From Gemmata obscuriglobus (GTDB taxonomy: Bacteria; Planctomycetota; Planctomycetia; Gemmatales; Gemmataceae), in assembly GCF_008065095.1 (NCBI RefSeq), contig NZ_CP042911.1, positions 8,820,001 to 8,852,000 on the forward strand: a stretch of DNA of 32,000 nucleotides. Direction: 5' to 3'. This document shows, piece by piece, positions 3,247 to 32,000 of this stretch. Under the pieces are notes generated by a model, which was not told where the DNA came from, did not search any database, and worked only from the letters and a program-made list of their open reading frames with translations. Within the stretch, counting starts at the first letter, position 1. Every line of letters begins with the position of its first letter. The translations under genes were made by a program, and so were the position numbers.

Positions 3247-3499
3247 CACTACTCCGTTACCTCGCCATAACTACTTATTTTACAACGATTTATGTAAAAA
3301 ATATCGCCTTAAAATCTTGTAGGATCTGGACTTGAGGCAAATGGAATGCTCACCGCCCCACCGGGATGTTTGCTGTTCTCGTGAACGGACTCGCCAGAAT
3401 CGCTGAGATTTGAGCCCATTGCGGGTGCACAAACCTGTAGGTGCAGATCACCACAAACCGCTCTACTGTAATTGGTTGTGGCGAAGTAACGGAGTAGTG
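3247..3499. repeat. AT-rich 253-bp element with terminal inverted repeats (MITE-like)
   Basis: cactactccgttac (3247-3260) is the exact reverse complement of gtaacggagtagtg (3486-3499). Pairing extends inward to about 27 bp with about 3 mismatches (3247-3273 vs 3473-3499). The interior is much more AT-rich than the flanks. Confidence 0.4.
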
Positions 3500-3551
3500 T
3501 TATACGGTCGTGGCTCGTCAACAAAAGCGACACCCATTGCGAATTCACGTA

Positions 3552-5399: not shown

Positions 5400-7727
5400 C
5401 TACTTGCGGCGCTTCCGCGGGCGCGGGGGGCGGCCGGGAGTGGGGAGAGCGTCGCCCCCGTCATCTTCCGTTTTCGGCCGCGCGTCGGCCAGTCTCAGGT
5501 CCAGCATCCGCCGCGGCAAATCGACCCGGGCGACGACCACCCGGACGCGGTCCCCCAACCGGAACCGCCGTTGCGTCCGCCGCCCCTCTAACGAGTGCGC
5601 GCTTTCGTCGAACCAGTAGTAATCGTCCACCAGCGATGAGATGTGCACCAGCCCTTCGGCCGGGAACCGCTCCGCCTGCGCGAAGAAGCCGTAGTCCGCG
5701 ACGCCCGTGATGACCGCGTCGAGCTGCTCGCCGAGTCTGCCGCTCAGATAGCTCAGGATGCGGGTCTTCACCAGCTCGCGCTCCGCCGTCTCGGCCCGCC
5801 GCTCCATCTTCGAGCAGTGCTCGCCCAGCGCCGCCAGTTCCTCCGTGTTCGCACTGGCCGATCCGGTCCGGACCCACTTGTCGAGGAGCCGGTGGACCTG
5901 GAGGTCCGGGTAGCGGCGGATGGGCGAAGTGAAGTGGCAGTAGTGGTGGCTGGCGAGCGCGTAGTGCTCGTCCTGGACGGGCGAGTATGTGGCCTGTTTG
6001 AAGCTCCGCAGTAGCGCGAAGTGGAACGCGGCGCGCTCGGGCTTGTCGGCGGTCGCGTCCAGCACGCGCTGGAGTTCGTAGCGGTCCTGGGGGCGCTTGA
6101 TCGGGTGGCCGAGGATGGCGGCGAACTGGGCGAACGCTTCGAGCTTGTCCTCGTTGGGCGCCGGGTGGACCCGCCGCAGGAACGAGACCTCGTGCGCGGT
6201 GAAGTGTTCCGCGACGGCCTCGTTTGCCGCGAGCATGAACTCCTCAACGATCTGGTGGCTCAGGTTGTGTTCGGCGAAGTGCGCGCCGCTCACGCGCCCG
6301 TCGGCGTCGTACTCCAGCACCGCCTCGGGCATGGTGAGTTCGAGCGCGCCGCGCTTGAACCGCTTCTTGCGCAGGAGGAGCGCGAGGTCGCGCATCCGGC
6401 GGATCATGGGGAGCAGATCGGGGGCCGGACCTACCCCCCCCGGCCCCCCCTCCCTGAAGGGAAGGGGGGAGTCAGCAGGTGGCGCGCCCGGCGCATCGGT
6501 GACGTTGGCGGCGCGCGAAGGGTCTGTCTCCCCCCTTCCCTTCAGGGAGGGGGGGCCGGGGGGGGTAGGTCCGCTTGCCAGTTCGTCCAGCAGCGCCTGG
6601 ACCTCGTCGTAGGTGAACCGCTTGCGGTTCCGGATCGCGCCGTTGAAGAACTCCACGTGCCCCTTTTGAAGCCCCGGGGTGAACTCCATCCGCACGGTCT
6701 TCACGTACCGGACCTTGCCCTCCTGCAGCGACGCCAGCCCGTTGGAGATCAGCTCCGGGAACATCGGGATGACCTTCTGCGGCAGGTACACGCTGGTGGC
6801 GCGCTTCCGCGCCTCGGCGTCCAGCGCGCCGCCGGGCTTCACGAACGCCGCCACGTCCGCGATGTGGACCGTCAGCACCCAGTGCTTCGTCTTCGGGTCG
6901 ATGGTGACGCTGACCGCGTCGTCGTAGTCCTTCGCGTCGGGCGGGTCGATGGTCACGACCAGCTCGTCCGTGAAGTCCGTGCGGCCGTGCAGGTCCGCTT
7001 CCGAGAACTGGCTCGCGACCTCCCGGGCCTCGGCCAGCGCGCTTTCCGGGAACGCTTCGGGCAGCCCGAACGCGCGGATAACCGAGAGCGTATCGACGCC
7101 GGGCGCGCCGTTCGGCCCGAGCACCTCCGCGACGACGCCCTCGCCACGCGCGTCGGGCGCCGGGAACCGCAGCATCTCGATGACGACCTTGTCCTGCGGC
7201 TTCGCCCCCTTCGCCCCCGGGTCGCCGACCGCGATGCTGTGCGCGAACAGGTTGCCGTCGACGCGCACGAGGGCGGTCCGGTCGCGCTCGAAGTAGGTGC
7301 CCACGAACGTGCGGGTGGCCCGCTCCAGCACGCGCACGACCTCGCCGGCGGCGTCCTTGAGCCGGGTCGCCGTGCGGGTGACCCGGGCCATCACCTCGTC
7401 GCCCGTGGCGGCGTCGAGGGCCTTGTCCTCGCGGATGTAGATCTCGGGCTGCGGCGCCCCGTCGACGGCGTGCGGCCGGACGAACCCGTGCCCCGCCGCG
7501 GAGCGGCGGTACACGCCGGCGACGGTGCCGTGAACGTCCGCGACGCGCAGCGTGTTGTTCTTGGCGAGCGCGAGCCGCCCGGTGCGGACCAGCTCGCGCA
7601 CCGTCTTGCGGAACTCGGGGTAGTCACTCTCGGGCAGGTTGAGCCGCTTGAACAGCGGCTTCGCCTTGAGCGGGACGTAGCTCTTCGCGGTCACCGCGTG
7701 GAGCACTTTCGCGAGAATTTCAGCCAT
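5400..7727 (-). CDS. rnr: Ribonuclease R (3'-5' exoribonuclease: cold-shock/OB, RNB and S1 domains)
   Basis: RNB motifs are present (TIDPPDAKDYDDAVSV, SVYLPQKVIPMFPE, HYALASHHYCHFTSPIRRYPDLQVHR). There is a C-terminal S1 domain and a basic tail. The start was chosen at MAEILAKV (ATG 7725-7727) rather than the upstream ORF-track start at 7868. Confidence 0.9.
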   Translation of the reverse strand: MAEILAKVLHAVTAKSYVPLKAKPLFKRLNLPESDYPEFRKTVRELVRTGRLALAKNNTLRVADVHGTVAGVYRRSAAGHGFVRPHAVDGAPQPEIYIREDKALDAATGDEVMARVTRTATRLKDAAGEVVRVLERATRTFVGTYFERDRTALVRVDGNLFAHSIAVGDPGAKGAKPQDKVVIEMLRFPAPDARGEGVVAEVLGPNGAPGVDTLSVIRAFGLPEAFPESALAEAREVASQFSEADLHGRTDFTDELVVTIDPPDAKDYDDAVSVTIDPKTKHWVLTVHIADVAAFVKPGGALDAEARKRATSVYLPQKVIPMFPELISNGLASLQEGKVRYVKTVRMEFTPGLQKGHVEFFNGAIRNRKRFTYDEVQALLDELASGPTPPGPPSLKGRGETDPSRAANVTDAPGAPPADSPLPFREGGPGGVGPAPDLLPMIRRMRDLALLLRKKRFKRGALELTMPEAVLEYDADGRVSGAHFAEHNLSHQIVEEFMLAANEAVAEHFTAHEVSFLRRVHPAPNEDKLEAFAQFAAILGHPIKRPQDRYELQRVLDATADKPERAAFHFALLRSFKQATYSPVQDEHYALASHHYCHFTSPIRRYPDLQVHRLLDKWVRTGSASANTEELAALGEHCSKMERRAETAERELVKTRILSYLSGRLGEQLDAVITGVADYGFFAQAERFPAEGLVHISSLVDDYYWFDESAHSLEGRRTQRRFRLGDRVRVVVARVDLPRRMLDLRLADARPKTEDDGGDALPTPGRPPRPRKRRK
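6426..6573. repeat. Perfect 46-bp inverted repeat pair with a 56-bp spacer, lying in frame inside rnr
   Basis: 6426-6471 (cggacctaccccccccggccccccctccctgaagggaaggggggag) is the exact reverse complement of 6528-6573. It encodes PTPPGPPSLKGRGE...SPLPFREGGPGGVGP between the OB region and the RNB domain. Confidence 0.85.
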
Positions 7728-7806
7728 AGATTTTTGGCGCCCCTGCCCTCGCGGGCGGGGCGTCAGAGCGGCAACGAGCCCGGCCCGCGGGGCCGGCTCG
7801 CCGGGG

Positions 7807-8811
7807 TCAGTCGTACCCGCCGCCGGACTCGCCGAACAGGTCGCCGAAGGCCCCGCCCTTGTAAACACGGCGGCCCAGGTTGTGGTTGTACGGCGTCCAC
7901 GCGGTCGGGTTGTTGCGGTCGTCCTTCAGCTCGCGCAGCACCATGTGCATGCGCGTGTCCATCGCGTCGATCAGGTGCAGCAGCATCGCCTCGGGGGTCA
8001 TCGGCACCTTCGGGCTGCCGTAGCTCAGCTCCCCGTGGTGGCTCAGGATCATGTGCTGGAGCCGGAGCATCAGCTCCCGCGGGAACGGCTCCCCGGTCAG
8101 GTCCGGCACCTTGGCCGCGGTCTCGGCGAGCATCGCCACGGCGATCGGGATGTGCCCGACCAGTTGCCCCTCGTCGGAGTACCCGAAGGCGCGCGAGAAG
8201 GTCAGCTCCCGGGTCTTGCCCGCGTCGTGCAGCAGCACGCCCATCAGCACGAGGTCGCGGTCCGTGCCGGGGTACAGCGCGAGCACCTTGTCCGCGATGT
8301 CCATCATCGAGACCGTGTGCTCCAGCAGCCCCCCCACGTAGGCGTGGTGCAGCTTCACCCCGGCCGGGCACGTCGCGAACGCCCGCATGAACTCGTCGTC
8401 CATGAGGAAGCACTCGGCGAGCGCCCGCAGGTGCGGGTTGCCGAGCCGGAGCAGGTAGCCCTTCAAGCGCTCCGTGAGCTTCGGGATGCTGTGCTCGGTC
8501 TGCGGCAGGAAGTCGGCGAACTCGACCTTCTGCGGCTCCACCCGCTCGACTGCCGTCAGGATGGCCTGCAGCGCGCCCTGGAACAGTTGCACCTTGCCGG
8601 TGGCGAACAGGAAGTCGCCGGGGTCGAACCCGCGCGCGATGCTGTCGCCGGCGTTCCACATGCGGCCCTGGATGCCGCCGGTGCGGTCCCGCAGTTCTAC
8701 AAGGAGGTACGGGTTCCCGTTCCGGTTCGCGCGGAGCTGCTTGTCCGTCACGAGGTACACGTCTTCGAGGTTGTCCCCGTCGCGGAGCTGTTCGACGAAA
8801 CGGCGGGCCAT
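7807..8811 (-). CDS. YhaM-like 3'-5' exoribonuclease (N-terminal OB fold plus HD domain)
   Basis: The start is MARRFVEQL (ATG 8809-8811). OB-like [25 protein letters not shown] is present, with HD-domain motifs [12 protein letters not shown] and VLLHDAGK, and LSHHG. Confidence 0.7.
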
Positions 8812-9068
8812 GCGGGTGCGTACTTTCTTGCATGAAACGTGAGAACGGTCGGCGCGGTCGCAACGCCCGCGGCGCGCGCCTACGGGCAATTGTACCGGCG
8901 ATCGCACCGGGGCGCAGGAAATCCAGCCGCGTACAATGGGGGCAAGAAGACGAAGAACCTCATCCCCCGCTCCCGGCCCCTTCCCGTCCCGCCGGCCCGG
9001 TCAGCGGAGCTTCCGCGGGCCGGCGGAACGAGAGGGTGCCGGGGGAGAGGCTCTTCAGGAGACCGTTT

Positions 9069-17459: not shown

Positions 17460-18719
17460 TCACGCCGCCCGGGCATCGAACAGCGTCACACCGGACTCGA
17501 TCGTACTGCCCACGAACCCGCGCACCTCTTCGGTGCCCCACGGCAGTTCGGCGTCGTTCGGTTCCGGCCGCTCGGGTAGGTCCGTTTCGAGCAGAACGGC
17601 GGCCATACGCTCCACCTCGTCGCGGAGCGCGGAGAGTTCCGCCGGGATCGCCGGGAGGCTCGCTTCCGGCACCCACGTCGCGTAAGGCACGACATCCGGG
17701 TCACCGCCGTTGACGCGCGCCTGAGCCTCGTGAACGGCCAGCGCCTCTTCGCGCTTTGCGAACTCGGCCTCAAGGTGCTCGCGCTCGGTGTGCCACCGCA
17801 TCTCGAACGCGACCAGCTTCGACTGCCACGCCTCCAGTCGCAACCGGAGCTGCCAAAGGGCGTACCCCTCGTCGCGGCGGTGGGCGTCGGCGCGGTTCAG
17901 ACGCTGCTCGCGGGCGTCGAGTTCGGCCTCGCGGTGACGCAAGGTGCGGGCGAGCTGCTCCATTTCGATCACGGTCGCGCGCTCGGCCGCCTGCCACCCG
18001 GCGCGAGCGGCCGCGAGCTGAGAAAACTGTTCCGCCAGAACTCGGCGCTGGTCGTTGATGCCGGACTTGTCACGCGCCACCGACGCGAACAGCGCGGTCA
18101 CGGAGGCCCGCTCCACGTTCAACCGGTCCTCCTTCTTGGCCAGTTCGTTGGCCCACTTGGCGAGGTCGCGGTCGGTGGCGCGGTCCAGCGCGACCTTCAG
18201 ATCCAGCGGCGGCTCGGGCGGGGGCGCCAGCACCTCGGCCCGCAACTGCTCGCGCTGGCGCTCCAGTTCCTCCACCACCAGCCGCGCGTTTCGGGCGCGG
18301 GCGTCGAGCGCGCTGGCCTCTTCGCGCAGTTCGACCAGTTCGCGCTGGAGCCGGGCTCGGGCGTCGGCGTCGTCCTTCTCACGAACCGTCAGTGCGGCCG
18401 CCCGGACGTCGAGCAACGACGCCTGCTCGGCGTGGAAGCGGTTCACCTCATCCCATTCATCCGTCAGCCGCTTTTGACGCGCGTGGAACTCGGCCCACGA
18501 GTCGCGCAGCCGGTCGCGGTCGGTCACCATCGTGGCGTTGAAATCCGACTGCACCTGGTTGAACCGCAAGACCCGCGACTCGAGCGCCTTGCGATCGGCC
18601 TCCAGTTTGGCACGAGCACGTTCGACGGTACGGTGCGCAGCTCGGGCCTCCGCAAGGAGCCGCCGCGCCTCCGCCCGATCCGAGCCAGCTTGACCGAGGT
18701 CGTCGTCGATTTCTGGCAT
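17460..18719 (-). CDS. Long coiled-coil protein of unknown function
   Basis: About 420 aa are dominated by heptad-like charged and Ala/Leu/Arg/Glu-rich sequence (ARAKLEADRKALESRV.., LQRELVELREEASALDARARN..). The start was taken at MPEIDDD (ATG 18717-18719), while the ORF track starts at GTG 18770. Confidence 0.55.
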   Translation of the reverse strand: MPEIDDDLGQAGSDRAEARRLLAEARAAHRTVERARAKLEADRKALESRVLRFNQVQSDFNATMVTDRDRLRDSWAEFHARQKRLTDEWDEVNRFHAEQASLLDVRAAALTVREKDDADARARLQRELVELREEASALDARARNARLVVEELERQREQLRAEVLAPPPEPPLDLKVALDRATDRDLAKWANELAKKEDRLNVERASVTALFASVARDKSGINDQRRVLAEQFSQLAAARAGWQAAERATVIEMEQLARTLRHREAELDAREQRLNRADAHRRDEGYALWQLRLRLEAWQSKLVAFEMRWHTEREHLEAEFAKREEALAVHEAQARVNGGDPDVVPYATWVPEASLPAIPAELSALRDEVERMAAVLLETDLPERPEPNDAELPWGTEEVRGFVGSTIESGVTLFDARAA

Positions 18720-18796
18720 ATCCGCGCCCCGCACCGGCAGTAAAACCTGTACACCCGGATTTATCGGCACAGCGAGATGTGTTCTTAAGCGTTACA

Positions 18797-18870
18797 AACG
18801 GTTCCGGGGCGGCGCCCCCTGGAACGCACCATTGGCGGTGCGTTCCAGGGGGCGCCGCCCCGGAACCGTT
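18797..18870. repeat. Perfect 34-bp-stem hairpin (REP-like palindromic element)
   Basis: aacggttccggggcggcgccccctggaacgcacc (18797-18830) is the exact reverse complement of 18837-18870, with the loop attggc. It lies between the trxA stop and the coiled-coil gene start, and no U-tract follows on either strand. Confidence 0.85.
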
Positions 18871-20894: not shown

Positions 20895-21884
20895 TTACGC
20901 CAATCGCAGCCGTTCACCGAGTCGCCGCAGCCCCTCTTCAACTGACACCTTGGGCTCATAACCGAGGTCCCGCCGGGCCGCACTAATGTCGTACCAGTGC
21001 GACGTGGACATCTGGTTCGCCACGAACCGCGTCATCGGCGGTTCGCCTGGAAGCCGGAACAACCAGTACACCGACTCCAGCACCCGCCCCGCCAGCCGCG
21101 CCTTCCACGCCGACACGCGAGCTGTGACCGGCGGCAATCCGGCTTCGGCCAAAATGCGGTCAACGAACGGCCACAACTCCACCGGTTCGCCGTTTGAGAT
21201 GAAGTACGCCTTCCCGGCTGGCGCGGTGCCGATGTCGAGCCGATCCGCGGCATCGAGTTGCGACTGCGCAGCGTTGTCGATGTACGTCACATCGACCTTG
21301 GCCGGTCGGTTGCCGATCCGCTTCAGTTTCCCGGCGCGAGCGGAGTCGATGATGCGCGGGATCAGGTGCGGGTCCCCCGGCCCGAAAATCAGGTGCGGCC
21401 GGAGCGACACCGTCGCGAGGTCCGAACCGTTCGCGGCCAACACGGCCTTCTCGGCTTTCGCCTTCGTCTCGGGGTACGCGGCGTCGAAGTGCTTCGGGTA
21501 CGGGAGCGACTCGTTCGCCCCCTCGTTGTCGCCGCCCGCGTGAACCACGCTCGGCGTCGAGGTGTATACGAGGCGCCGGACGCCATGCGTCTTGCACGCT
21601 GCGATCACGTTCTGCGTGCCCACAACGTTGGTGCTGTAGTAGGCCGAGTAGCGCCCCCACACGCCGGCCTTCGCCGCGACGTGGAACACCACATCGCAGC
21701 CGGACACCGCACGCTCGACCGACTCCAAGTCCGAGAGGTTGCCAAGTGACTGTTCGACGCCGAGTTCGTCGAGCCACGGGTACGCCGAGCGGGTGAACGA
21801 GCGGACGGAGTCGCCCCTTTGCCGAAGCAGCCGCACGACCGCCCCGCCGAGAAACCCGCCGCCGCCCGTAACGACCGCCTTCAC
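20895..21884 (-). CDS. oleD: OleD: NAD(P)H-dependent 2-alkyl-3-oxoalkanoate reductase (3-beta-HSD / extended SDR family)
   Basis: MKAVVTGGGGFLGGAVVRLL is a Rossmann GxxGxxG motif. The 3-beta-hydroxysteroid-dehydrogenase-like core is present (VVFHVAA, YSTNVVGTQNV, LVYTSTPSV, YPETKAKAE). The GTG start at 21882-21884 overlaps the oleC stop (GTGA). It is the last gene of the oleABCD synteny. Confidence 0.8.
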   Translation of the reverse strand: MKAVVTGGGGFLGGAVVRLLRQRGDSVRSFTRSAYPWLDELGVEQSLGNLSDLESVERAVSGCDVVFHVAAKAGVWGRYSAYYSTNVVGTQNVIAACKTHGVRRLVYTSTPSVVHAGGDNEGANESLPYPKHFDAAYPETKAKAEKAVLAANGSDLATVSLRPHLIFGPGDPHLIPRIIDSARAGKLKRIGNRPAKVDVTYIDNAAQSQLDAADRLDIGTAPAGKAYFISNGEPVELWPFVDRILAEAGLPPVTARVSAWKARLAGRVLESVYWLFRLPGEPPMTRFVANQMSTSHWYDISAARRDLGYEPKVSVEEGLRRLGERLRLA

Positions 21885-23659
21885 GCTTGTTCCCCGGGAC
21901 TCCAGTTCGGACCAAATAACTTATCGGCCTGCACCGCGAGCTTCTCGCGAAAGATCTTGGAGTTGTGCCGCACGTCCATCGGGAACTCCGGGTGCAGCAG
22001 GTACGTGACCACGCGGCGTGCTGCCGCAGAGCGCTGTCCAATACTAGACATGAGCCCGTCCAGCGCCGGACCGGACGGTCCCCCGACCGCGTCAAAGAGG
22101 GTGCTCCCCGGCTCGCTGCTACGGTCCAGTTCGACCCAGAGCACGGGGTACGTAATTCCGCGGCGAGTCACCCCCACCAGAGCCGTCCGGCGCACCCCCG
22201 GGACGGTATTAAAGATCGGCTCAACCATGTCGGTAAACAGTGTGCCGTGGGGCGTCACGACCCGGTGCGATTTGCGCCCACAGAACCAGAGCCGCCCTTG
22301 CGCGTCAAAATACCCGACGTCACCCATGCGGTGCAGAACTTCGCCGGTTTTCGGGTCGCGAATCTTCGCCAACTTGGTCGCGTCGGGGCGGTTGTAGTAC
22401 AGTTGCGTCACCACCGGCCCGCGGACCACGAACTCGCCCACCTCCCCCTGCGGCACGAGGAGCGAATCGTCCCACTCGGCGACCGGCTGGTCGCTGATGC
22501 GGATCACCCGCACCTCCACCCCCGGCACGGGCCGCCCGACGCACACGCCCTTACCTTGGTCGGTCAGGTGCCGCGTTTCGCCCAGGATCTCACGGCTACC
22601 GATGTTCGCAACCGGCAGCGCTTCGGTTGCCCCGTAAGGGGTGAACACCTCGACGCCGTCGGGAAGAAGGCGAACGAACCGCTCGAGTGACGCTGCTGAC
22701 GCCGGAGCCCCAGCGGAGATAACCCTTTTGAGCGTCTCAAGTCGGCGGGTCTCCGGTCCCGAGTCGGGGGCCGCACTGTTTTCTGACTTGGGACCGGAGA
22801 CCCGCCGACTTGGGACCGTTAATTCCCCCAACCGGCGGATCACGGCCGGCGAGCCGAACAGGCTCGTGACGCCGAACTGCTTGATTTGCGCCGCGGCCTT
22901 ATGAGGGTCGAGGCGGGCCGGGCGGCTCGCGTCCATGTCCGGGATCACGCACGTCATCCCGAGCGCCGGGCCGAACAACGCGAACAGCGGGAACGTACAG
23001 AGGTCGATCTCGCCCGGCGCGATGCCGTAGGTGGCCTTCAGCAGTTTCACTTGCGCGTCGAAGATGCCGTGGACGTACACCACCCCCTTCGCCACACCGG
23101 TGCTGCCGCTGGTGAACAGGACCGCCGCCGGCTCCGTCGCCTGCGAATCCGGCACCGGGTACGGCCCGCTCCCGCGCCCGGCCTTGCGCACCCGCGCGAG
23201 CGAGGTGTCGCAGAAGAACCGCCACCGGGACACGTTCACGGTGGCGCGAACGGTGCCCTTCGCCCACCCCAGCACGCGCCGCGCCGCGTGCGCCTTCGCG
23301 ACCCCGATGAACGCTTCCGGCCCGGCCTCCGCAAGGCACTTGCCGAGGTTCCTGACGCCCATTCCGGGGTCGATCAGCACCGGGACGGCGCCGACCTTGA
23401 AAAGAGCAAAGGTTAGGGCGAAGAAGTCCGGCGACGGCGGCACCATCAGGGCCGTGCGCGTGCCCCGGGCGACGCCCGCCGACGCGAGCCCGTGGGCGAT
23501 CGCGTCGGAGTCGGCGTTCAGCTCGCGGAAGGTGATCGCCCGGTGTTCGGTCGGGCCGTCGCGGCGCACCCGGCCGCGGGGCGCGTAAACCGCCACCTGC
23601 GTTGGGTGCTCCGCGGCCATCCGGACCAAATGCGAGGCGACGTTGAGGGAGGTGTTCAT
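21881..23659 (-). CDS. oleC: OleC: AMP-dependent synthetase family, beta-lactone synthetase
   Basis: This is a 592-aa ANL-superfamily protein (LFTSGSTGVAKGVVY, ISAGAPAS, FTPYGATEALP, HRMGDVGYFDAQGRLWFCGRK). It sits between oleB and oleD. Confidence 0.85.
   Translation of the reverse strand: MNTSLNVASHLVRMAAEHPTQVAVYAPRGRVRRDGPTEHRAITFRELNADSDAIAHGLASAGVARGTRTALMVPPSPDFFALTFALFKVGAVPVLIDPGMGVRNLGKCLAEAGPEAFIGVAKAHAARRVLGWAKGTVRATVNVSRWRFFCDTSLARVRKAGRGSGPYPVPDSQATEPAAVLFTSGSTGVAKGVVYVHGIFDAQVKLLKATYGIAPGEIDLCTFPLFALFGPALGMTCVIPDMDASRPARLDPHKAAAQIKQFGVTSLFGSPAVIRRLGELTVPSRRVSGPKSENSAAPDSGPETRRLETLKRVISAGAPASAASLERFVRLLPDGVEVFTPYGATEALPVANIGSREILGETRHLTDQGKGVCVGRPVPGVEVRVIRISDQPVAEWDDSLLVPQGEVGEFVVRGPVVTQLYYNRPDATKLAKIRDPKTGEVLHRMGDVGYFDAQGRLWFCGRKSHRVVTPHGTLFTDMVEPIFNTVPGVRRTALVGVTRRGITYPVLWVELDRSSEPGSTLFDAVGGPSGPALDGLMSSIGQRSAAARRVVTYLLHPEFPMDVRHNSKIFREKLAVQADKLFGPNWSPGEQA
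22738..22812. repeat. 75-bp palindromic element in frame inside oleC
   Basis: caagtcggcgggtctccggtccc (22738-22760) is the exact reverse complement of gggaccggagacccgccgacttg (22790-22812). Pairing extends inward 4-5 bp and outward 3 bp after a mismatch. The 75 bp equal 25 codons. Confidence 0.85.
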
Positions 23660-24924: not shown

Positions 24925-26082
24925 CTACCACTCCAGCCCGAGCATCAGGCAGTTCAGCCCGCTGCCGATGCCCAGGAAACCGACCCGGTCGCCCGGCCGG
25001 AGGAACTCCCGTTCCTCCGCAATGGCCGCGGTGATCGGCAGCGAGACGGTGCCAATGTTGCCCAGGTACTCGAACGTGCTGAAGTCCTTCTCCGGCGAAA
25101 CGCCGATCGCCCGCAGCACCGCGTCGCGGTGCCCGGCGCCCACTTGGTGACAAATCACCTTATCAAGGAAGTCCGGCCGCCAGCTCAGTTTCGTCAGGAA
25201 CTTCTGCCAGGTGCGGTGGCCGAGTTCGACGCCGTACTTCAGCACCTCGCCGGCGTGCGTCTCCATGAACGGAATCATCACGTGCCGCATCCCGAGGTCG
25301 ACGCCCTTCTGCACCAGCCCCGTGGCGTTGTCGACGCTCTTCTGCATCAGCCCCGCGGCGTTCGCTCCCAGGACCCGCTCCACGGTGCCGACCGCCGAGG
25401 GGAGCAGCGACTGGAGCCCCCACCGGCACAGGTTGTGGTACTGGGGCGCGTTCTGGGTCGCCCCGCCGAGCAGCTTCCGCCGCTTCTCGCGCGACAGCTC
25501 CGCGCTGACGACCAGCACCGCGACCGCCCCGGACCCGCCGGTGAGCGTCGCGATGCTCTCGCGGAACAGTTCGACCGACTTCGTCCGCACCATGCGGTCG
25601 ATCACGTTCTCGTTGATCTCCCGCGCCGTCTCCGCCGAAACCACGAGCCCCGCCTGCGCCTGTCCGAGTTCGATCTTGTTCGCGACCTCGACGATGCCGT
25701 TCAGCACGCCCAGGCACGCGTTGCTCAGGTCGAAGATCGCGGCGTTCGGGTTGATGTTCAGCTCGTGGGCCACGGCGCACGCGGTGGCCGGCTCGAAGTT
25801 CTCCCGGCACACGCCCGCGTAGATCAGCACGTCGATTTCCGACGCGGAGATGTCCGCCGCGGCCAGCGCTTTACGGCCCGCGGCGGCCGCGCCCTTCGAG
25901 AGCGGGTAGCCGGGCTCCCACCACCGGCGCTCGCTGATGCCCGTGAGCAGTTCCAACTGCCCCGGTGACATGTTCAGCGATTTGTACACCGGCGCGAGCC
26001 GCGCTTCGAGTTCCGCGGTGGAAACCACCACCGGCGGCAGCTCGTACCCGATCGCTTCGAGGTGAACGCGGTTGTATTTCAT
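24925..26082 (-). CDS. oleA: OleA: thiolase-superfamily (FabH-like) acyl-CoA head-to-head Claisen condensing enzyme
   Basis: This is a 385-aa FabH-like protein with active-site DLSNACLG (Cys codon at 25714-25716), CHQVGAGH and GNIGTVSLP. It is the first gene of the oleABCD order and starts 46 bp after the PKS stop. Confidence 0.85.
   Translation of the reverse strand: MKYNRVHLEAIGYELPPVVVSTAELEARLAPVYKSLNMSPGQLELLTGISERRWWEPGYPLSKGAAAAGRKALAAADISASEIDVLIYAGVCRENFEPATACAVAHELNINPNAAIFDLSNACLGVLNGIVEVANKIELGQAQAGLVVSAETAREINENVIDRMVRTKSVELFRESIATLTGGSGAVAVLVVSAELSREKRRKLLGGATQNAPQYHNLCRWGLQSLLPSAVGTVERVLGANAAGLMQKSVDNATGLVQKGVDLGMRHVMIPFMETHAGEVLKYGVELGHRTWQKFLTKLSWRPDFLDKVICHQVGAGHRDAVLRAIGVSPEKDFSTFEYLGNIGTVSLPITAAIAEEREFLRPGDRVGFLGIGSGLNCLMLGLEW
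25297..25362. repeat. 2 x 33-bp in-frame tandem duplication inside oleA
   Basis: Unit 1 is 25297-25329 (gtcgacgcccttctgcaccagccccgtggcgtt). Unit 2 is 25330-25362 (gtcgacgctcttctgcatcagccccgcggcgtt). They match at 30/33 positions and encode NAAGLMQKSVD / NATGLVQKGVD. Confidence 0.85.
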
Positions 26083-26128: not shown

Positions 26129-29100
26129 CTATTCTAGGGTGAAATCGGTCATCTGGTAGATAACCCGCCCGTCCACGGTCAGGAACCCGTTGGCGGTGAG
26201 CCGGTGATTATCGTCGTCCGCGGCGACGATTTCTAGCACAACCGTGACCTCGTGGTCCTTCGGCAGCACCTGCCCGCGGTACACCCACGTGTGCGGCACG
26301 TTTCGGGCCACCGTGTGCCACGGCTTCGCCGGCGCCCCCCACCGCTTCCACGCCGCGTACTTCAGCAACTGGAGGAACGACTCCAGCCCCAGCGACCCGG
26401 GCCACACCGGGTCCTGGTAGAAGTGCGCCTTGAAGAACCAGAACTCCGGATCGACCTTGATGGTCCCCACCAGGAGCCCGAGCCCCTTCGCGCCGCCGTC
26501 CGGGACGTACGCGGTGACCCGGTCCACCATGCGCAGCATCGCCCCGGGGAACGGCGGCTCGTGCGGGAGCGCGTCGCTCCTGGCTCGCACCAGCTCCTGC
26601 TCGTTGGGCCACGGCACCCGGGCTTCGCGGATGCCGACCTGGTTCGCCAGTGCCCCCTTCGTGAAGAACCCGAAGTAGGTGGTGCCCTTGTACATCGGCC
26701 CCTGAGCGTCCTCGACGAGCATGTCGTAGTGCTGAATGATCATGCCCGCAGAGTTCGACACGCCCGTCATCTTCACGGTGGTCGCGAGCGTCCCGGTGGC
26801 CGGCGTCACCGCGCGGAACTGGGTGCCCTTCCCGCCGAGGTTGCGGAAGCTCAGGTCGTCCTTGCTGGTGAGCGCCGACCCGCAGTACGCGGCGAGCCAC
26901 CCGCACGGCTGGAGGGCGATCTCCAACAGGACGCTGAACGGCATGTTCTCGCAGCGGTTCTCGCCGAAGTACCACTCGTCCGGCGGCACGGCGTAGAGGG
27001 CGGTGCAGCTCGCGCCGGCCTTCAGCACGAACGGCTCGCCGGACACGGCGGTCACGCAGTCGAGGAACTGGTACGGCGGCCCCGGCAGGCGAGCGAGCAC
27101 CCGCTCGGAGTCGAACACCTTGTAGGGCTCGCCGAACGCTTCGGACGGGTTGCCGTTCGAGTACGCCATGATTTTGGCGGAATCGTACAGCGGAGCGGCA
27201 GACAACCCACCCCCCGGCCCCCTCCCTGCAGGGAGGGGGAGAGAAGACACTTCCGAACCGGTTCGTGGACCGGATGGGGTTCGCACCGCGTCGGAACGCC
27301 CCGCTCCCTTCAAGGGAGTAGGTTCTGCCATCCCGGCCCAGATCACATTCAGCTTCTCGCGCGAGAGCCCCGACATGCGCAGCGTCATGTTGGTGATCTC
27401 GACGATCGGCTTGCCGTCCGCGTACATCAGCGCGTCGGCGACGCAGAACGGCTCCGGCCGGTAGCCCAGTTCCTTCACCGTCACCTCGTAGGTGACGGTC
27501 TTGGTCGTCGCGAGCACCTGCCCGCGGCACTTCAGCCGGCTGTTGACGCCCGGCAGCGGCTCGCACACCACGTCGTCGGCCTCGCCCACCCAGCCGAGGC
27601 GCATCAGCAGCACGCGGAGCGTGTGCAGGCAGCACTCGTACATGAGCGTCCCCGGCATCACTTGATCGTCCACGAAGTGACACGTCAGGAACCAGTCGTC
27701 CGGGTGAATGTCGAACTCGGCGCGCACGAAGCCGGTGCCGAACCGCCCGCCCGCGGGTTCGATCAGGGGCACACGGTCCACGAGCCGGAGCATCCCGCCG
27801 GGGATGGTGGCCGGTCGCGTCAGCCGCGCCCGGGCGAACGCCGGCCCGAACGCCCCCACGAGGTCGCCCCCGCGCAGGGCGTCCACCTGTTGCGCGGTCA
27901 GCGCGCACACCGTTTGGGGCACGAGGTCCGCCCAGTCGTCGGGCCTCTTGCCCGGGAACCGCTTCTTGTCGAGCGCGGTCTGAACGATCCCCTTACCGGC
28001 CGCGAGCGCATCCGCGGTGAAGAACCCGGCTACGCCGTTGCGCATCGTGATGAGGGGCTCGCCGTTGACCGTTCCGTCGAACCAGAAGTGGAACAGCCAG
28101 GAATCGCCCTGCTTCACGAACTTGTCGATGTGGATGTCGTAGGTCACCGTTTCGCCGACCTGCGGCAGCCCGCGGTGGAACGACACGACCGCGTCGAGCA
28201 GCCGGTACACGGCCAGCCCGCGGGTCTCGAAGTCGATGCCGAGGTACCCCGAGAGGAACAGGTCGGCCTGCCCCGCCTCGACGCAGATCGCGGTCGGGAT
28301 GCGGCCCGATTGCAGGTACCAGCGGTCCGCGCGGACGGTGTGGTGCGTCACCACGCGCCCGCTCGTCATCGACTTCGGCTCGCCCTCAATGAGGCTGATG
28401 CTGTCGACGAGTTGGAGCGGGCCGTCCGGCAACCGGACGCGGGTCGGGAAGGAATCGACCTCGGCGAACAGCGGCCCGAGCGCGTCGGCGATCTTGCCGG
28501 CCGCGTAGGTGCAGCACTGCTCGAAGGTCAGCGCGCGGGGCGGCTCCAGCGGGGACGCCGGAGGGGTCAGCCACACGAGCGACGAGACCGGTTCGCTCGC
28601 GCCCGCGCCTCCGCGCGTCCACGCATCGAGCAGCGAGGTTTGGAACCTCAGCACCCCGGCGGCAGACTCCATCAACTTGCCGCTGACACGCAGGAACGCC
28701 TCTTGCGCCTGCATGTTGAGCACCTGCACGTTTGCGACCGACTCAATGACCGGGGCAAGAGACGGCACCAGTTCCGGAGCGAGCACCGGAACGATGTGTG
28801 GGCTCGCCACCTCTTCGGGCTGAGCCGCCGGAGCGAGAGGTTGGCTCCGCAAGCGAACGTGAGGCTCGGGGGATGAACGAAGCGCCTCGGTGGGAGGAAC
28901 GTGTGGAGTCGGCTCCGGTGTGCCAGCGGCCACGACCGGCGCGACGCGCTCCTCCCCGTCCGTCTCGATCGGCACCGCGCTCGGCGCGGCTTCCCGCTTC
29001 GTGAGAGGTGTCAATACCACGGCCGGGGGCACCGGGCGCAACCCCACCGGCACCACAACCACGTTGCGCCGCGCCGGTTCGGGCTCCCGGTGCGCAACGC

Positions 29101-32000
29101 ACCGCGTTTCCGTACCGTACAGCGCGGCGAGATCGACCGGCAACCGCTCTGCCGCCAGGTGCGCCACGAGGCGAACGACCTGCGACACCGCGTCCGGCTT
29201 CGCGGCGTGGGCGGCCCGGGCCAGGTGCCGGCGGTCGCCCAGGATCGCCGAAATCATGCGGGTGCACGAGCCCCCCGGCCCCACTTCGACGAACGCGCGC
29301 ACCCCGTCGCGGTACGCCGCCTCGATCACCCGCGGCACGTCGATCAGCCCGACCAGCCCCGACGTGATCGAGTCCGCGCACGCCAGTTCGCCGGGCCGGT
29401 AGCTCTTGCCCCAGGCGCCGCTGTACACGGTCAGGGCGTGGGCCGGCGGCGTCACCGGCAGCATGTGCAGGTCGTGGTACGGCCCGAACACCGGCTTCCC
29501 GGCCTCGCAGTGCGCGAGCGTCACGCCCTCCAGAAGCATCACGGGCTTACCGACCGCCGCCGCGAGTTTCTCCACGTCGGCCCGCTTCCCACCGATCACG
29601 CACTCGCCCGGGGTGTTCACGATCAACAGGTACGCGAGCAGGCCCGGGCGCAGCGCCGCCGTCACGTCGTCGGCGCCGGCGGAAATCACGCCGCTGACCC
29701 AGTCCACCGGCTCACCGGCCGGAACGCCCCAGTACACCCGTGCGGAATCATACGGTGGGGCGAGGTCCGACGCGAACAGGGTCGAAACCTGCATCCGCCG
29801 GTACATTTCGTCGCGCTCGCGCCACAGACGCACCCCGAACAGGCCGGCCGACTCGCCGAGGCTCAGCCCGATCATCGCGTCGCAGCGGACGCCGAGCGCG
29901 GCCACAACGTCCGCCACCAGCGAGCCGACGGTCACCTGCCCGAACATCAGGTCTCGCGCCGGCGCGTCGCCCGCGCGCCCGTGCCAGAAGAACTGCGGGC
30001 TGAACTGGTCCCGCAGGCGCTGGTTCTCGGCGTCCTGTCGGCGCACCACTTCGGGCCACTGGGCGGCGAGGTCACGGCCCATGCCGTCGAACTGGTTCCC
30101 GGACCCGGGGAACACGAGCGCGACCTTCGCCCGCGTCCCGAGCGGCTTCGGGCTGTAGAACACGCGGTCCCGGAGCGCCTGGCGGGCCGTCGCCGGGAAG
30201 GGGCTGGCGGGGTCCGCGTGGAGCGACGATGCGGCGAACGAGATCTGTTCGGCGAGTTCCGCCCCTGAGCGCGCCGCGAACCCGACCGCCAGCTTCCGCC
30301 CGGCCCCCGGCGCCGCCCGGAACCACCCCCGGGCGACGGCCTCAACGTTGCGCCCGGCCCGGTCGTGCGCGAACGCCGACAGGGCCTCAATGCCCGCGAG
30401 CAGTTCGGCCGGCGTGTCGCCCTCGACCACGAACGCCGCTTCCGCCCGCGCGCCGAGCGGCTGCGCGAGTTCGGCCGGAACCCGCTGCGCGGGCTCCTCC
30501 AGCAGGAAAGCGAAGTGCGACCCGTCTGCGCCGGACGAGTGCACGCACGCGCGCCGCGGCCCGTCGGCCCGGTTCCGTAACCAGAACGTCGGCTCCTGGG
30601 GGCCGCGGGCGCCCCGGCCGCCGGGCGCCTCGATCAAAGAACCGGCCACGCCCCCCGGGAGCACTTCTTGATACAGCGCGACGCACGCCTCCAGAACCGC
30701 CACCGCCCCCGACGCGGCACCCGCCTCACCGACCCGCTCGGCCGTCCCCCCGAACACGACCGCCGACCCGAGCGGCAGCCCGGCATCGGCCGCGGCGCGA
30801 GATTGTGCGTCCCCCTCGGTCGATGCGACCCCAACTCCCTTAATAACGGCGTACACGCGGTCGCCGTCGCGCTCGGCGTCGGCGAGGCGTTTCAGCACGA
30901 GCGCGACCGCGCCGTCGGCCGGGAGCGACGCCTCGCCCGGGAGCACCAGCCGCGGGTCGCCGGCCAGGTCCACCCCGCCCACCAGAACGCGGTCCAACTC
31001 TCTGGCCTGGAGGGCACGAACCCCCAGTTCCAGCGCCCGAGCCCCGGAGCCCTCTTCGCTGCAAACCGTGTGGCTCGGCCCGCCGAAATGGAACGTCCGC
31101 GCGACGCGGCTCGCGGCGATGCTCCCGAGCGCGCCCATCGTCCGGTTCGCCGTCAGCGGCGGGGACGCTTCGTCGGGGCCGGCACCGCTCCCGATCGCGG
31201 CCCAGCGCAGGTGGAAGTTGGTGGTGTTCAGGTCCAACCCGAGCCCGACGAACACGCCGGTCGCGGGGTCACCGTCGGCGCGGGGGGCGTACCCCGCGTC
31301 GGCGAGCGCGTCCGCGGCCACGCGCAGCATCAGCAACTGCTGCGGCAGCGTCTCCTCCAGTTCCTTGGGCGGCACGCGGAACTTGTCGATGGGCAGCGCC
31401 AGCTCGTCGATGTAAAACCCGGGCGGGCACGGCTCGTCCGCCAGCGCCCAGCCGTTCAGTTTGATACCGGGCTCGGCCGTCCCCCCGCTGAACAACTGCT
31501 CTTGCAGCGCCCGGGCGTCGGCCCACGGCCCCACGTGCGCCGCCGCCCCCACCACCGCGACCGGCTCGCGGGGTTCGCTGGCGCGCGACCGGGCGGCCGC
31601 CTCGCGCGTTCCGACCGCGATGAGGCGCGGCGTTTTGCTCGCGCCCGAGCGCGGCGGCAGACCGGTCCACTCCTCGACGAGCAGGTGCGCGTTCACCCCG
31701 CCGAACCCGAACCCGCTCACCGCCGCCCGGCGCGGTTGGGTGGCGGACGAACGCCCCCAGCGCTCGGCGGCACGCAGCACCCGGAACGGCCCGCCGTCGT
31801 AGCTCAGCCCCGGCGCCGGGGTCGCGAAGTTCGCCTGCGGTGGGAGCTGCTCGTGCTTCATCGCGAGCAGCACTTTGGTCAGCGCCGCGGCGCCGGCCCC
31901 GGTGAGCAGGTGCCCCACCGTCGACTTCACCGAACCGATCACGCACTGCCCGGGCGCCCAGTCGGAACCGCCCCACAGTTCCCGCAGGCTGTCGAACTCG
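26129..32000 (-). CDS. PfaC/Pfa3-like polyunsaturated fatty acid synthase subunit: KS (C-terminal part visible), CLF, AT and two FabA-like DH domains; the 5' end lies beyond the window
   Basis: The frame stays open to base 32000 (..EFDSLRELWGGSDWAPGQC-VIGSVKSTVGHLLTGAGAA is the KS C-terminus). The CLF has no active-site Cys (GGPSHTVCSEEGSGARAL). The AT has FPGSGNQ and GLSLGE (29852-29869). The FabA-type DH motifs are CHFVDDQVMPG (His codon 27677-27679) and AHFYQDPVWPGSLGLE (His codon 26423-26425). Confidence 0.9.
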   Translation of the reverse strand, partial: EFDSLRELWGGSDWAPGQCVIGSVKSTVGHLLTGAGAAALTKVLLAMKHEQLPPQANFATPAPGLSYDGGPFRVLRAAERWGRSSATQPRRAAVSGFGFGGVNAHLLVEEWTGLPPRSGASKTPRLIAVGTREAAARSRASEPREPVAVVGAAAHVGPWADARALQEQLFSGGTAEPGIKLNGWALADEPCPPGFYIDELALPIDKFRVPPKELEETLPQQLLMLRVAADALADAGYAPRADGDPATGVFVGLGLDLNTTNFHLRWAAIGSGAGPDEASPPLTANRTMGALGSIAASRVARTFHFGGPSHTVCSEEGSGARALELGVRALQARELDRVLVGGVDLAGDPRLVLPGEASLPADGAVALVLKRLADAERDGDRVYAVIKGVGVASTEGDAQSRAAADAGLPLGSAVVFGGTAERVGEAGAASGAVAVLEACVALYQEVLPGGVAGSLIEAPGGRGARGPQEPTFWLRNRADGPRRACVHSSGADGSHFAFLLEEPAQRVPAELAQPLGARAEAAFVVEGDTPAELLAGIEALSAFAHDRAGRNVEAVARGWFRAAPGAGRKLAVGFAARSGAELAEQISFAASSLHADPASPFPATARQALRDRVFYSPKPLGTRAKVALVFPGSGNQFDGMGRDLAAQWPEVVRRQDAENQRLRDQFSPQFFWHGRAGDAPARDLMFGQVTVGSLVADVVAALGVRCDAMIGLSLGESAGLFGVRLWRERDEMYRRMQVSTLFASDLAPPYDSARVYWGVPAGEPVDWVSGVISAGADDVTAALRPGLLAYLLIVNTPGECVIGGKRADVEKLAAAVGKPVMLLEGVTLAHCEAGKPVFGPYHDLHMLPVTPPAHALTVYSGAWGKSYRPGELACADSITSGLVGLIDVPRVIEAAYRDGVRAFVEVGPGGSCTRMISAILGDRRHLARAAHAAKPDAVSQVVRLVAHLAAERLPVDLAALYGTETRCVAHREPEPARRNVVVVPVGLRPVPPAVVLTPLTKREAAPSAVPIETDGEERVAPVVAAGTPEPTPHVPPTEALRSSPEPHVRLRSQPLAPAAQPEEVASPHIVPVLAPELVPSLAPVIESVANVQVLNMQAQEAFLRVSGKLMESAAGVLRFQTSLLDAWTRGGAGASEPVSSLVWLTPPASPLEPPRALTFEQCCTYAAGKIADALGPLFAEVDSFPTRVRLPDGPLQLVDSISLIEGEPKSMTSGRVVTHHTVRADRWYLQSGRIPTAICVEAGQADLFLSGYLGIDFETRGLAVYRLLDAVVSFHRGLPQVGETVTYDIHIDKFVKQGDSWLFHFWFDGTVNGEPLITMRNGVAGFFTADALAAGKGIVQTALDKKRFPGKRPDDWADLVPQTVCALTAQQVDALRGGDLVGAFGPAFARARLTRPATIPGGMLRLVDRVPLIEPAGGRFGTGFVRAEFDIHPDDWFLTCHFVDDQVMPGTLMYECCLHTLRVLLMRLGWVGEADDVVCEPLPGVNSRLKCRGQVLATTKTVTYEVTVKELGYRPEPFCVADALMYADGKPIVEITNMTLRMSGLSREKLNVIWAGMAEPTPLKGAGRSDAVRTPSGPRTGSEVSSLPLPAGRGPGGGLSAAPLYDSAKIMAYSNGNPSEAFGEPYKVFDSERVLARLPGPPYQFLDCVTAVSGEPFVLKAGASCTALYAVPPDEWYFGENRCENMPFSVLLEIALQPCGWLAAYCGSALTSKDDLSFRNLGGKGTQFRAVTPATGTLATTVKMTGVSNSAGMIIQHYDMLVEDAQGPMYKGTTYFGFFTKGALANQVGIREARVPWPNEQELVRARSDALPHEPPFPGAMLRMVDRVTAYVPDGGAKGLGLLVGTIKVDPEFWFFKAHFYQDPVWPGSLGLESFLQLLKYAAWKRWGAPAKPWHTVARNVPHTWVYRGQVLPKDHEVTVVLEIVAADDDNHRLTANGFLTVDGRVIYQMTDFTLE
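27201..27325. repeat. Hairpin-pair element in frame in the linker between the two DH regions of the PfaC-like gene; related to the rnr element
   Basis: It contains the perfect 22-bp palindrome ccccctccctgcagggaggggg (27218-27239). It also contains the 12-bp palindrome cgaaccggttcg (27254-27265) and the hairpin ctcccttcaagggag near 27304-27318. The ends resemble the rnr element arms. It encodes EPTPLKGAGRS...SSLPLPAGRGPGGG. Boundaries are approximate. Confidence 0.6.

Follow-up and report, generated by a model that had tools for sequence, protein, structure and literature searches.

In-frame palindromic repeats are a known, seldom documented route to protein loops and linkers. Rickettsia palindromic elements (RPEs), reportedly described by Ogata and colleagues in 2000, are said to be 100-150 nt long and to lie in frame in protein-coding genes. 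RPEs are also discussed by Di Nocera et al. (2013; PMC3733652), who described GTAG REP units and dimers within ORFs of Opitutus terrae and others, encoding 20-30 extra residues. REPINs are head-to-head REP dimers (Bertels & Rainey 2011; PMC3116915). Intragenic in-frame copies are also on record for MITEs, namely the enterobacterial RU elements (PMC2759123) and Coxiella MITEs (PMC5896051; reviewed in PMC10969869). The kind of event reported here is already known from Rickettsia RPEs and intragenic GTAG REPs. New is a clear case in a free-living, GC-rich planctomycete, within a PUFA-type megasynthase.

The window analysed was a 32,000-nt stretch of the Gemmata obscuriglobus genome. A PfaC-like PUFA/polyketide synthase is encoded on its minus strand (26129-31942), with KS, CLF-like, AT and two FabA-like DH regions detected by Pfam. 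The ORF extends past the window edge, and the full protein has 2283 aa in a public draft genome (GCA_000171775.1, with an exact match of the neighbouring gene and the 2283-aa gene call). Anchor mapping across 80 orthologues placed the full inter-domain linker at 27191-27337 (minus strand, 147 nt, 49 codons), between the conserved anchors ..LNVIW and LYDS.. All but 14 nt of this linker belong to a palindromic repeat element of ~133 nt (~27197-27329), delimited by the outermost inverted repeat GGCAGA...TCTGCC and by terminal pairing in the fold. The original prediction had placed the element at 27201-27325; its existence was confirmed, but these limits were slightly too narrow. The termini GCAGAACC/GGTTCTGC are also present at four unrelated loci (L010, L090, L118 and L155). 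The segment probably represents a non-autonomous palindromic repeat, rich in G/C homopolymers, of which one copy was fixed in frame in the flexible linker after DH1, was tolerated there, and later had one arm truncated.

The segment is read on the minus strand, in frame, within ORF 26129-31942 as ..AEPTPLKGAGRSDAVRTPSGPRTGSEVSSLPLPAGRGPGGGLS.., and its predicted translation between the two DH regions was correct. A plus-strand ORF with a mirror peptide, also predicted, exists at 27150-27464 as an antisense ORF. According to the PDB alignment, the FabA fold of DH1 ends ~18 residues ahead of the insert. In the AlphaFold model the pLDDT was 38-62 over the insert and at least 90 on either side, with the low values at model residues ~172-214, a low-confidence coil between well-modelled domains. 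The element is therefore in frame at a domain boundary, and the inserted residues are predicted to be disordered. Among the 80 orthologues, the DH1-DH2 linker ranged from 12 to 264 nt (4-88 residues). Together, the end of the DH1 fold, the low-pLDDT coil and these linker lengths bear out the suggestion that the position tolerates inserts. The linker region was identical in the draft genome and five independent assemblies, indicating stability within the species. The element is almost free of stop codons and encodes a peptide rich in Pro, Gly, Ser and Arg. Since the frame was kept, the disordered linker would merely have become ~44 residues longer, and this would have been tolerated. Presumably the synthase derives no function from the element.

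A full copy of the repeat has two inverted arms of ~40-50 nt each around a variable centre. Each arm runs from an outer end, (G/A)ACC(T/C)A(C/A)C, through a C-run, GG and a second C-run into a small hairpin, TCCCT-NN-AGGGA. The copy in the pfaC linker has one full and one truncated arm, and its termini pair in the fold nonetheless. The intact arm (27204-27241), recognized by identity and in alignment A1, reads AACCCAC, C6, GG, C5-TCCCT-GC-AGGGA-G5, AG, and its sub-hairpin is an exact 22-bp palindrome (CCCCCTCCCTGCAGGGAGGGGG, 27218-27239). The centre (27242-27303) holds an exact 12-bp palindrome of its own (CGAACCGGTTCG, 27254-27265). Both palindromes had been predicted as exact. The truncated arm (27304-27324) consists of a sub-hairpin remnant, CTCCCTT-C-AAGGGAG, followed directly by TAGGTT. 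It lacks the C-run/GG/C-run block of 13-16 nt, as the predicted deletion of the run block at the right end implied; in our scheme this block would have been lost by a later deletion. A short hairpin predicted near 27304-27318 is present (CTCCCTTCAAGGGAG), but with a 7-bp stem and one unpaired base (7+1+7) it is a near-palindrome and not an exact one. An Rfam scan of the whole window at the gathering threshold gave no match for the element, and in E-value mode the best hit for 27100-27420 was to a miRNA model (E-value 0.32).

A reference copy of the same superfamily lies elsewhere in the window, in the rnr gene (6426-6573, 148 nt). Its 50-nt arms are 98% complementary, and it is in frame within a variable loop of the RNase R RNB domain (ORF 5400-7868, minus strand). 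It folds with -147 kcal/mol (z -12.9). A 131-nt deletion in the rnr element appears with SRR5887629, and may be either a real excision or a jump during reverse transcription or assembly. The nucleotide alignment of 6426-6573 and 27201-27325, proposed as a check in the original prediction, gave a local score of 56 in reverse-complement orientation, reaching into the loop-proximal GAAGKGTCTKTCTC. This was well above the G/C-rich background: the 32 kb themselves supplied 1252 natural windows of 125 nt, whose scores had a mean of 18 (sd 3.1, max 31; z = 12.3), and none of 1000 dinucleotide shuffles reached 56. The core motif CCYTCCCTKMAGGGARGG occurred three times in the window, with 0.17 occurrences expected. 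The loop-proximal end of the pfaC centre, GAGAAGACAC, matches the GTCTKTCTC side of the rnr copy, which sets the orientation of the pfaC copy. L122, an 85% relative, has a superfamily copy of the same orientation in its pfaC linker. A remnant of the terminus of the rnr element is shared with L205, whose RNase R is 92% identical to the query over the aligned part. The two copies in the window belong to one repeat superfamily, as the local score, the arm identities and alignment A1 show, and the predicted kinship is supported at this level.

The shared module was found by genome scan at no fewer than 120 loci in at least 10 phyla. The sub-hairpin unit, C5-7 TCCCT NN AGGGA G5-7, measures 22-26 nt, and its commonest type has one bulged or mismatched base. 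Paired-arm copies of 45-158 nt occur elsewhere in the sampled loci. Of the 130 matches listed, 98 carry a CCYAMC prefix and 102 an AG suffix, both of which lie outside the search pattern. Two metagenomic organisms share a centre stretch (GAGGCGACTCGCGCGTTCA) and its adjoining arm without a single difference, each in another gene: the pfaC linker in L123 and the rnr loop in L205. Further family copies lie in frame in other proteins: in the RNase R RNB loop (L010), an E2 acyltransferase linker (L054), MnmE (L086), a penicillin amidase (L098), and the linkers acyltransferase|AMP-binding (L024), AT|PS-DH (L106) and Glucosamine_iso|PIG-L (L062). Copies are also found between genes, for example downstream of convergent genes. 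There was one match only in viral contigs and none in the plasmid collection. A search of the rnr-encoded peptide against 1.84 billion representatives returned seven weak matches, and this route was uninformative because of composition filtering. String searches of the literature with sub-sequences of the element retrieved no relevant paper and no description of the family, and searches on Gemmata, MITEs and REPINs retrieved general REP and MITE papers only.

The intact arm was 100% identical over 38 nt to a copy in Frigoriglobus (L099), over 37 nt to one in Sphingomonas (L001) and over 36 nt to one in Armatimonadia (L041). In alignment A1 it is laid out like the 3' arms of the pfaC-linker elements of L123 and L128. 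These exact identities mark the intact arm as a variant that defines a sub-family, with an ACCCAC end and a GCAG loop; its differences from the rnr arm are not decay. In the truncated arm, by contrast, the loss of the C-run/GG/C-run block was unique among ~160 arms examined in 1.25 Mb of sampled loci. The description of the pfaC copy as older and decayed was hence only half right: degeneration is confined to 27304-27324, 27204-27241 is not decayed, and the age of the copy relative to the rnr copy is not rankable. The pfaC centre had no significant relative in the 1.25 Mb of sampled loci (best score 37, shuffled maximum 30-35), and a likeness to G. algarum copies noticed by eye was not significant on testing.

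These comparisons also bear on whether the similarity could be a by-product of a G/C homopolymer-rich, low-complexity linker that evolved in place, with no repeat element involved. In its favour, C and G runs make up most of the sequence, and the Pro/Gly peptide is itself of low complexity. However, the score exceeded that of natural windows from this GC-rich DNA by 12 sd and no shuffle attained it, the 36-38-nt matches to unrelated genomes are exact, and flanking positions beyond the search pattern are conserved. We consider this reading refuted by the alignment score, the exact identities and the flank conservation, and give it next to no credence.

In architecture, a full copy corresponds to a REP head-to-head dimer (REPIN), or equally to a MITE. 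Like GTAG REPs and REPINs, the Gemmata family has short, imperfect, G/C-rich palindromic units, two of which are inverted around a spacer of 20-100 nt and can fold as one long hairpin. It also carries a GTAG-like motif (GTAG/GTGG) at its outer ends, and it is dispersed in many copies around which no target duplication is visible. In classical REPs a conserved, unpaired GTAG or CGTC tetranucleotide directly adjoins the palindrome. Here the tag, which can also read TTAG, lies 10-16 nt from the small hairpin, with a G-run/CC/G-run block between them, and the long hairpin pairs it with CTAC. The REP families described in PMC3733652 are lineage-specific, whereas the Gemmata module is nearly identical across phyla, with 36-38-nt identity among Gemmata, Sphingomonas and Armatimonadia copies and occurrence in at least 10 phyla. 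Such near base-for-base conservation of a repeat module across phyla is a further point that this case adds. REPs are mobilized by a RAYT (Y1 HUH transposase), whose single-copy gene they flank; no RAYT gene was linked to the Gemmata family in the window or in 1.25 Mb of loci. Its sequence was not found among the 24 GTAG families in the text of PMC3733652, and the supplements of that paper contain neither CCCTCCC nor GGGAGGGG.

Similarities to MITEs are the small size, the terminal inverted repeats, the many copies, the lack of own coding capacity and the peptide that some copies add in ORFs. What defines MITEs, however, is a cognate IS that shares their ends, together with target-site duplications, and neither was found for the Gemmata family. 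RPEs resemble it in behaviour only, in that an in-frame palindromic insert adds a surface or loop peptide and the protein is not destroyed. Their hosts are AT-rich obligate intracellular alphaproteobacteria and their sequences are unrelated; the Gemmata family, in contrast, is built of G/C homopolymers, encodes a Pro/Gly-rich peptide and occurs in many phyla. Homology with RPEs is implausible given the base composition.

Folded recombination sites of integrons were considered as well. Integron attC sites carry R'' (RYYYAAC) and R' (GTTRRRY) boxes, are recognized by a tyrosine recombinase as folded single strands, and lie in same-orientation arrays beside an integrase; variants in Chloroflexota and some Planctomycetota end in ACCTAAC...GTTAGGT, which fits RYYYAAC/GTTRRRY. 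The copies in the window end in ACCTACC/ACCCACC and GGTAGGT/GGTGGGT, which breaks the AAC/GTT core. Moreover, copies occur singly, either within genes or downstream of convergent ones, and do not form cassette arrays of one orientation. On account of the end sequences we reject attC-like sites for the copies in the window; for the family, too, we regard this identity as extremely improbable.

A search for a mobilizing enzyme gave no candidate in the sampled sequences. The Pfam scan of the window ORFs detected no transposase or RAYT-like gene, and two regular expressions for HUH/Y1 motifs found no ORF in six-frame translations of the window or of 1.25 Mb of loci. In this limited sample, inverted arms spaced 0.4-4 kb from each other never enclose a transposase, as those of a parent IS would. 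The sole distant inverted-arm pair (L001) flanks ordinary genes and was discarded as an autonomous element. L100, a contig bounded by arms, was likewise discarded as a transposase carrier, as it encodes an apparent P4-type primase-helicase. Neither the rnr copy nor the intact copies in L034, L051 and L098 showed an evident direct repeat at their provisional ends. We infer that transposition brought the element to this site. The most plausible route would be a hairpin of single-stranded DNA processed by a Y1/HUH (RAYT-like) enzyme, which is favoured because no target-site duplication is visible.

The linker of the synthase is repeatedly occupied by palindromic elements in relatives. The comparison of PfaC orthologues, another check proposed in the original prediction, showed that both the occupant and the linker length vary among relatives. 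Strong hairpins (z < -3) were formed by 25 of the 63 linkers of at least 40 nt and by none of 63 coding control segments, and these 25 come from several unrelated sequence families. In the closest orthologues, too, palindromes of several unrelated families sit at the same linker position. Relatives of ~85% carry a copy of the same superfamily (L122), an L124-type element (P0329, an 86% relative) and a third type (P0320). The RNase R loop likewise has differing occupants among relatives. An empty linker site was not recovered from any close relative. Occupation of one inter-domain linker by several palindromic families in many lineages is another point that this case adds, and offers a natural system for studying retention versus targeting.

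One reading of this pattern is that a hairpin is selected for its own sake at the domain boundary, for example as an mRNA structure that makes the ribosome pause and gives DH1 time to fold ahead of the emergence of DH2, in which case any palindrome would serve. The excess of strong hairpins of different families over the controls agrees with it, as does the presence of one in every closest orthologue. The pfaC segment, whose sense RNA folds with -76.4 kcal/mol (z -3.25 versus shuffles), is also the sole strongly structured part of the gene, being the only one of 143 windows along it with z < -3. Yet the antisense strand folds equally well (z -3.16), and there is no asymmetry between the strands that would suggest a role at the RNA level. 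Seventeen orthologues have linkers shorter than 40 nt, and five long linkers (L164, L174, L180, L189 and L191) are without structure. The same elements also occur in other genes and intergenically, and hairpin linkers concentrate where the genomes of a lineage contain many such repeats. Selection for the hairpin is accordingly improbable, and tolerated insertion of a dispersed repeat remains the preferred reading.

A second possibility concerns the history of the site and is somewhat better placed, although still doubtful. Here the present copy would have replaced, or nested into, an older palindrome at the same spot, either by inserting into a hairpin already there, which would act as a landing pad, or by recombining with dispersed copies, so that the site was always occupied and its occupant turned over. 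The different occupants in ~85% relatives, the same pattern in the RNase R loop and the nested or abutting copies in L205 and L118 fit this history. On the other hand, no intermediate was seen at the pfaC locus, independent insertions into a permissive short linker fit the same data, and the close relatives sampled are few, with fragmentary contigs. More speculatively, the G/C-run hairpin module might be a single mobile-palindrome superfamily of at least 10 phyla that in Gemmataceae, together with unrelated palindromes, prefers pre-existing hairpins, with the PfaC DH1|DH2 linker and the RNase R RNB loop as landing pads with occupant turnover; we hold this possible, not likely. If true, a single cross-phylum superfamily would imply a common mobilizing enzyme or frequent horizontal spread, and mobile DNA would continually make and remake the linkers of large multidomain proteins.

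The elements break assemblies and gene calls, and anyone annotating genomes of Planctomycetota or Chloroflexota should be prepared for megasynthase genes that are split at linkers of this kind. Contig ends frequently fall within the element, and among public gene models for PfaC and RNase R there are many that stop or shift frame precisely where such an element lies.

The palindromic element in the PfaC-like synthase gene (the pfaC element) belongs to a dispersed family and sits in frame at a disordered domain boundary; such insertions recur. Delimited by its outermost inverted repeat, GGCAGA/TCTGCC, it spans ~27197-27329 of the window, which has a G+C content of 67.8%. The 22-bp (27218-27239) and 12-bp (27254-27265) palindromes named in the original prediction are both exact, and the short hairpin noticed near 27304-27318 has a 7-bp stem that encloses one base. 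All three lie within the synthase ORF (26129-31942, minus strand) and are translated in its frame, the segment reading ..AEPTPLKGAGRSDAVRTPSGPRTGSEVSSLPLPAGRGPGGGLS... The proposed mirror-peptide ORF on the plus strand (27150-27464) exists, as an antisense ORF. Among 143 sliding windows along the synthase gene, only the element folded with z < -3. Its sense and antisense RNAs fold equally well, and therefore nothing points to an RNA-level role. The surrounding 320 nt were identical in five independent Logan assemblies and in the draft GCA_000171775.1, which we take to be Gemmata obscuriglobus UQM 2246. In that draft the synthase is 2283 aa long, and the neighboring gene product (24925-26082, minus strand) has an exact match on contig ABGO01000103.1.

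Likeness to the element in the RNase R gene (the rnr element, 6426-6573, with 50-nt arms that are 98% complementary), previously judged by eye, held in a formal local alignment. The best score was 56, compared with a mean of 18 and a maximum of 31 for 1252 windows of natural sequence from this DNA, and was reached by 0 of 1000 dinucleotide shuffles. This alignment, running from the arm into the loop-proximal GTCTKTCTC, was in reverse-complement orientation, and the two copies are therefore oppositely oriented relative to their host genes.

Scanning genome collections with the pattern CCCCGGCCCCN{0,5}TCCCTKMAGGGA returned at least 120 loci. By record title, the 120 matches listed came from Chloroflexota (42), Planctomycetota (39; Gemmata, Frigoriglobus, Singulisphaera and others), Pseudomonas (9), Bacteroidales (9), Verrucomicrobiaceae (7), Sphingomonadales (4), Armatimonadota (3), Polyangiaceae (2) and five other groups (one each). 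The module shared by the superfamily copies, CCYAMC-Cn-GG-Cn-TCCCT-NN-AGGGA-Gn-AG, hardly varied across the phyla in which it was found (at least 10; L001-L120); cultured Sphingomonas, Pseudomonas and Gemmata algarum are among its carriers. Homology extends past the searched pattern, as both the prefix CC(T/C)A(A/C)C (98/130 hits) and the AG after the G-run (102/130) lie outside it. Copies ranged from a lone 45-50-nt hairpin to 130-158-nt elements with a variable centre, and the small hairpin occurred in compensatory versions (C5-TCCCT/AGGGA-G5, C4T-TCCCT/AGGGA-AG4, C2TC-TCCCT/AGGGA-GAG2). Sphingomonas copies were single and downstream of convergent genes, a REP-like placement.

The pfaC element had been taken for an older, decayed member of the rnr family; this mostly held up, in that the membership stood while the decay was overstated. 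Its intact arm is 100% identical to copies from Frigoriglobus (L099, 38 nt), Sphingomonas (L001, 37 nt) and Armatimonadia (L041, 36 nt), and because of this its differences from the rnr arm are sub-family variation, not decay. Only the other arm has lost a block (C-run/GG/C-run), most simply by a later deletion, since the block-less form was found nowhere else in the sampled loci. The centre had no significant relatives there.

Pfam recognized KS and FabA-like domains in the synthase, and the alignment to FabA structures (1mka, 2cf2) stops at ..ADGKPIVEITNM, ~18 residues ahead of the insert. The insert is a disordered inter-domain linker, as an AlphaFold model of the region (built on 89 sequences) has pLDDT values of at least 90 on either side and of 38-62, with no secondary structure, across model residues ~172-214. 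That this position tolerates extra residues, as originally suggested, agrees with the orthologues: in 80 loci (52-78% identity), the linker between the anchors ..LNVIW and LYDS.. was 12-264 nt long, in frame in every one, and its occupants differed between relatives. Strong folds (z < -3) were found in 25 of the 63 linkers of at least 40 nt, versus 0 of 63 same-length coding controls; the other 17 linkers were shorter. A palindrome fills the linker in all of the closest orthologues. L123, L126, L128 and L155 carry members of the superfamily described here; the palindromes of L124, L125, L127, L129, L130 and L132 are unrelated to it. The contig of an 85% relative (L122) begins within a superfamily copy, in the orientation of the window copy and ~10 nt from LYDS, while two proteins carry an L124-type peptide (P0329, 86%) and a third type (P0320, 81%) at this site. 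A universally required hairpin is argued against by the short linkers and by long ones without structure (L164, L174, L180, L189, L191), which argue for a permissive site repeatedly colonized by palindromic elements.

The RNase R loop behaves similarly, with ~8-12 residues in insert-free orthologues and different elements in others. One RNase R, 92% identical to the query over the aligned part (L205), has retained part of that terminus and carries a second element as well. Another (L204, 90% identity; Gemmata-like genome GCA_000531095.1, HG799462.1, 2330-2470) has a different G/C-run element, whose in-frame TAA and frame change caused annotation as two genes (391 and 331 aa). L206 (4240-4275; Logan SRR5887629), from an assembly that matches the window at 99% identity, lacks 131 nt of the rnr element. 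The junction falls between two CCGGCCCCC direct repeats and shifts the RNase R frame, so that two overlapping ORFs were called. The gap could reflect true excision, or else a jump over the hairpin by a polymerase or in assembly. Many public gene calls of close relatives begin, end or frameshift exactly at the RNase R loop (P0138-P0166) or the PfaC linker (P0038, P0052, P0074, P0248, P0274, P0301); hairpins built of G/C homopolymers evidently disrupt both assembly and gene prediction.

Three observations were counted as evidence for mobility: an identical centre-plus-arm (GAGGCGACTCGCGCGTTCA...) in the pfaC linker of L123 and the rnr loop of L205, from two different metagenomic organisms; nested or abutting copies (L205, L118); and contig ends frequently falling inside the element. 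Pfam scans of nineteen long ORFs spanning family copies placed them inside or between recognized domains in seven proteins: RNase R (L010), penicillin amidase (L098), MnmE (L086), 2-oxoacid dehydrogenase E2 (L054), and acyltransferase|AMP-binding (L024), AT|PS-DH synthase (L106) and Glucosamine_iso|PIG-L (L062) proteins. Two of three reading frames are open per arm, and the peptides, read from sequence, are Pro/Gly/Ser/Arg-rich. The entire 3065-nt contig_47 of Gemmata algarum (L100) is bounded by several element arms. Its 953-aa product resembles, judging by sequence, a P4-type primase-helicase, and the contig may belong to an integrative element with the repeats on its flanks.

The pfaC element would have arrived by transposition. 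No target duplication was evident at the ends of the rnr copy or of intact copies in L034, L051 and L098, no IS with matching ends was found in the sampled loci, and no RAYT gene in the window or in 1.25 Mb of sampled loci. The route proposed for REPINs is movement of single-strand hairpins by RAYT Y1 transposases (PMC3733652, PMC3116915). The Gemmata element matches their architecture of head-to-head REP dimers; however, its GTAG-like tag does not directly adjoin the small hairpin and its family is not lineage-specific. For these reasons, and with no RAYT in the sampled DNA, we describe it as working like a REPIN/MITE and do not file it as a member of either. The Rickettsia RPEs are an established case of palindromic repeats read in frame. 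GTAG/CGTC REPs lie in frame within genes of Opitutus terrae, Thauera and others (PMC3733652), and MITEs have been described within genes too (PMC2759123, PMC5896051). Given these precedents, the kind of event is known; for the sequence family we found no literature description, and for the pfaC element no Rfam model. Less ordinary are a module conserved nearly base for base across phyla and a single linker in which different palindromes turn over. A joint reading, a cross-phylum superfamily with turnover at landing pads (existing hairpins receiving new insertions), is tentative and rather unlikely.

Other palindromes occur in the window. A hairpin at 22734-22816 (32-nt arms, 94% complementary), within the minus-strand ORF 21881-23659 that encodes an AMP-binding enzyme, is probably the 'second' in-frame element of the original prediction; it is of an unrelated sequence family and falls at about residues 281-308 of the AMP-binding Pfam match. 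Inverted repeats were also found at 3237-3509 (AT-rich; 58-nt arms, 74% complementary, 157 nt apart) and 8965-9050 (G/C-rich; 35-nt arms). A perfect 34+6+34 palindrome (18797-18870), just past the end of ORF 17460-18770, reached 59.7 and 58.4 bits on its two strands against Rfam RF04274 ('mir-9223 microRNA precursor'), a family with a gathering threshold of 53 bits. A match to this eukaryotic miRNA family in Gemmata suggests either a contaminated family seed or a generic perfect hairpin.
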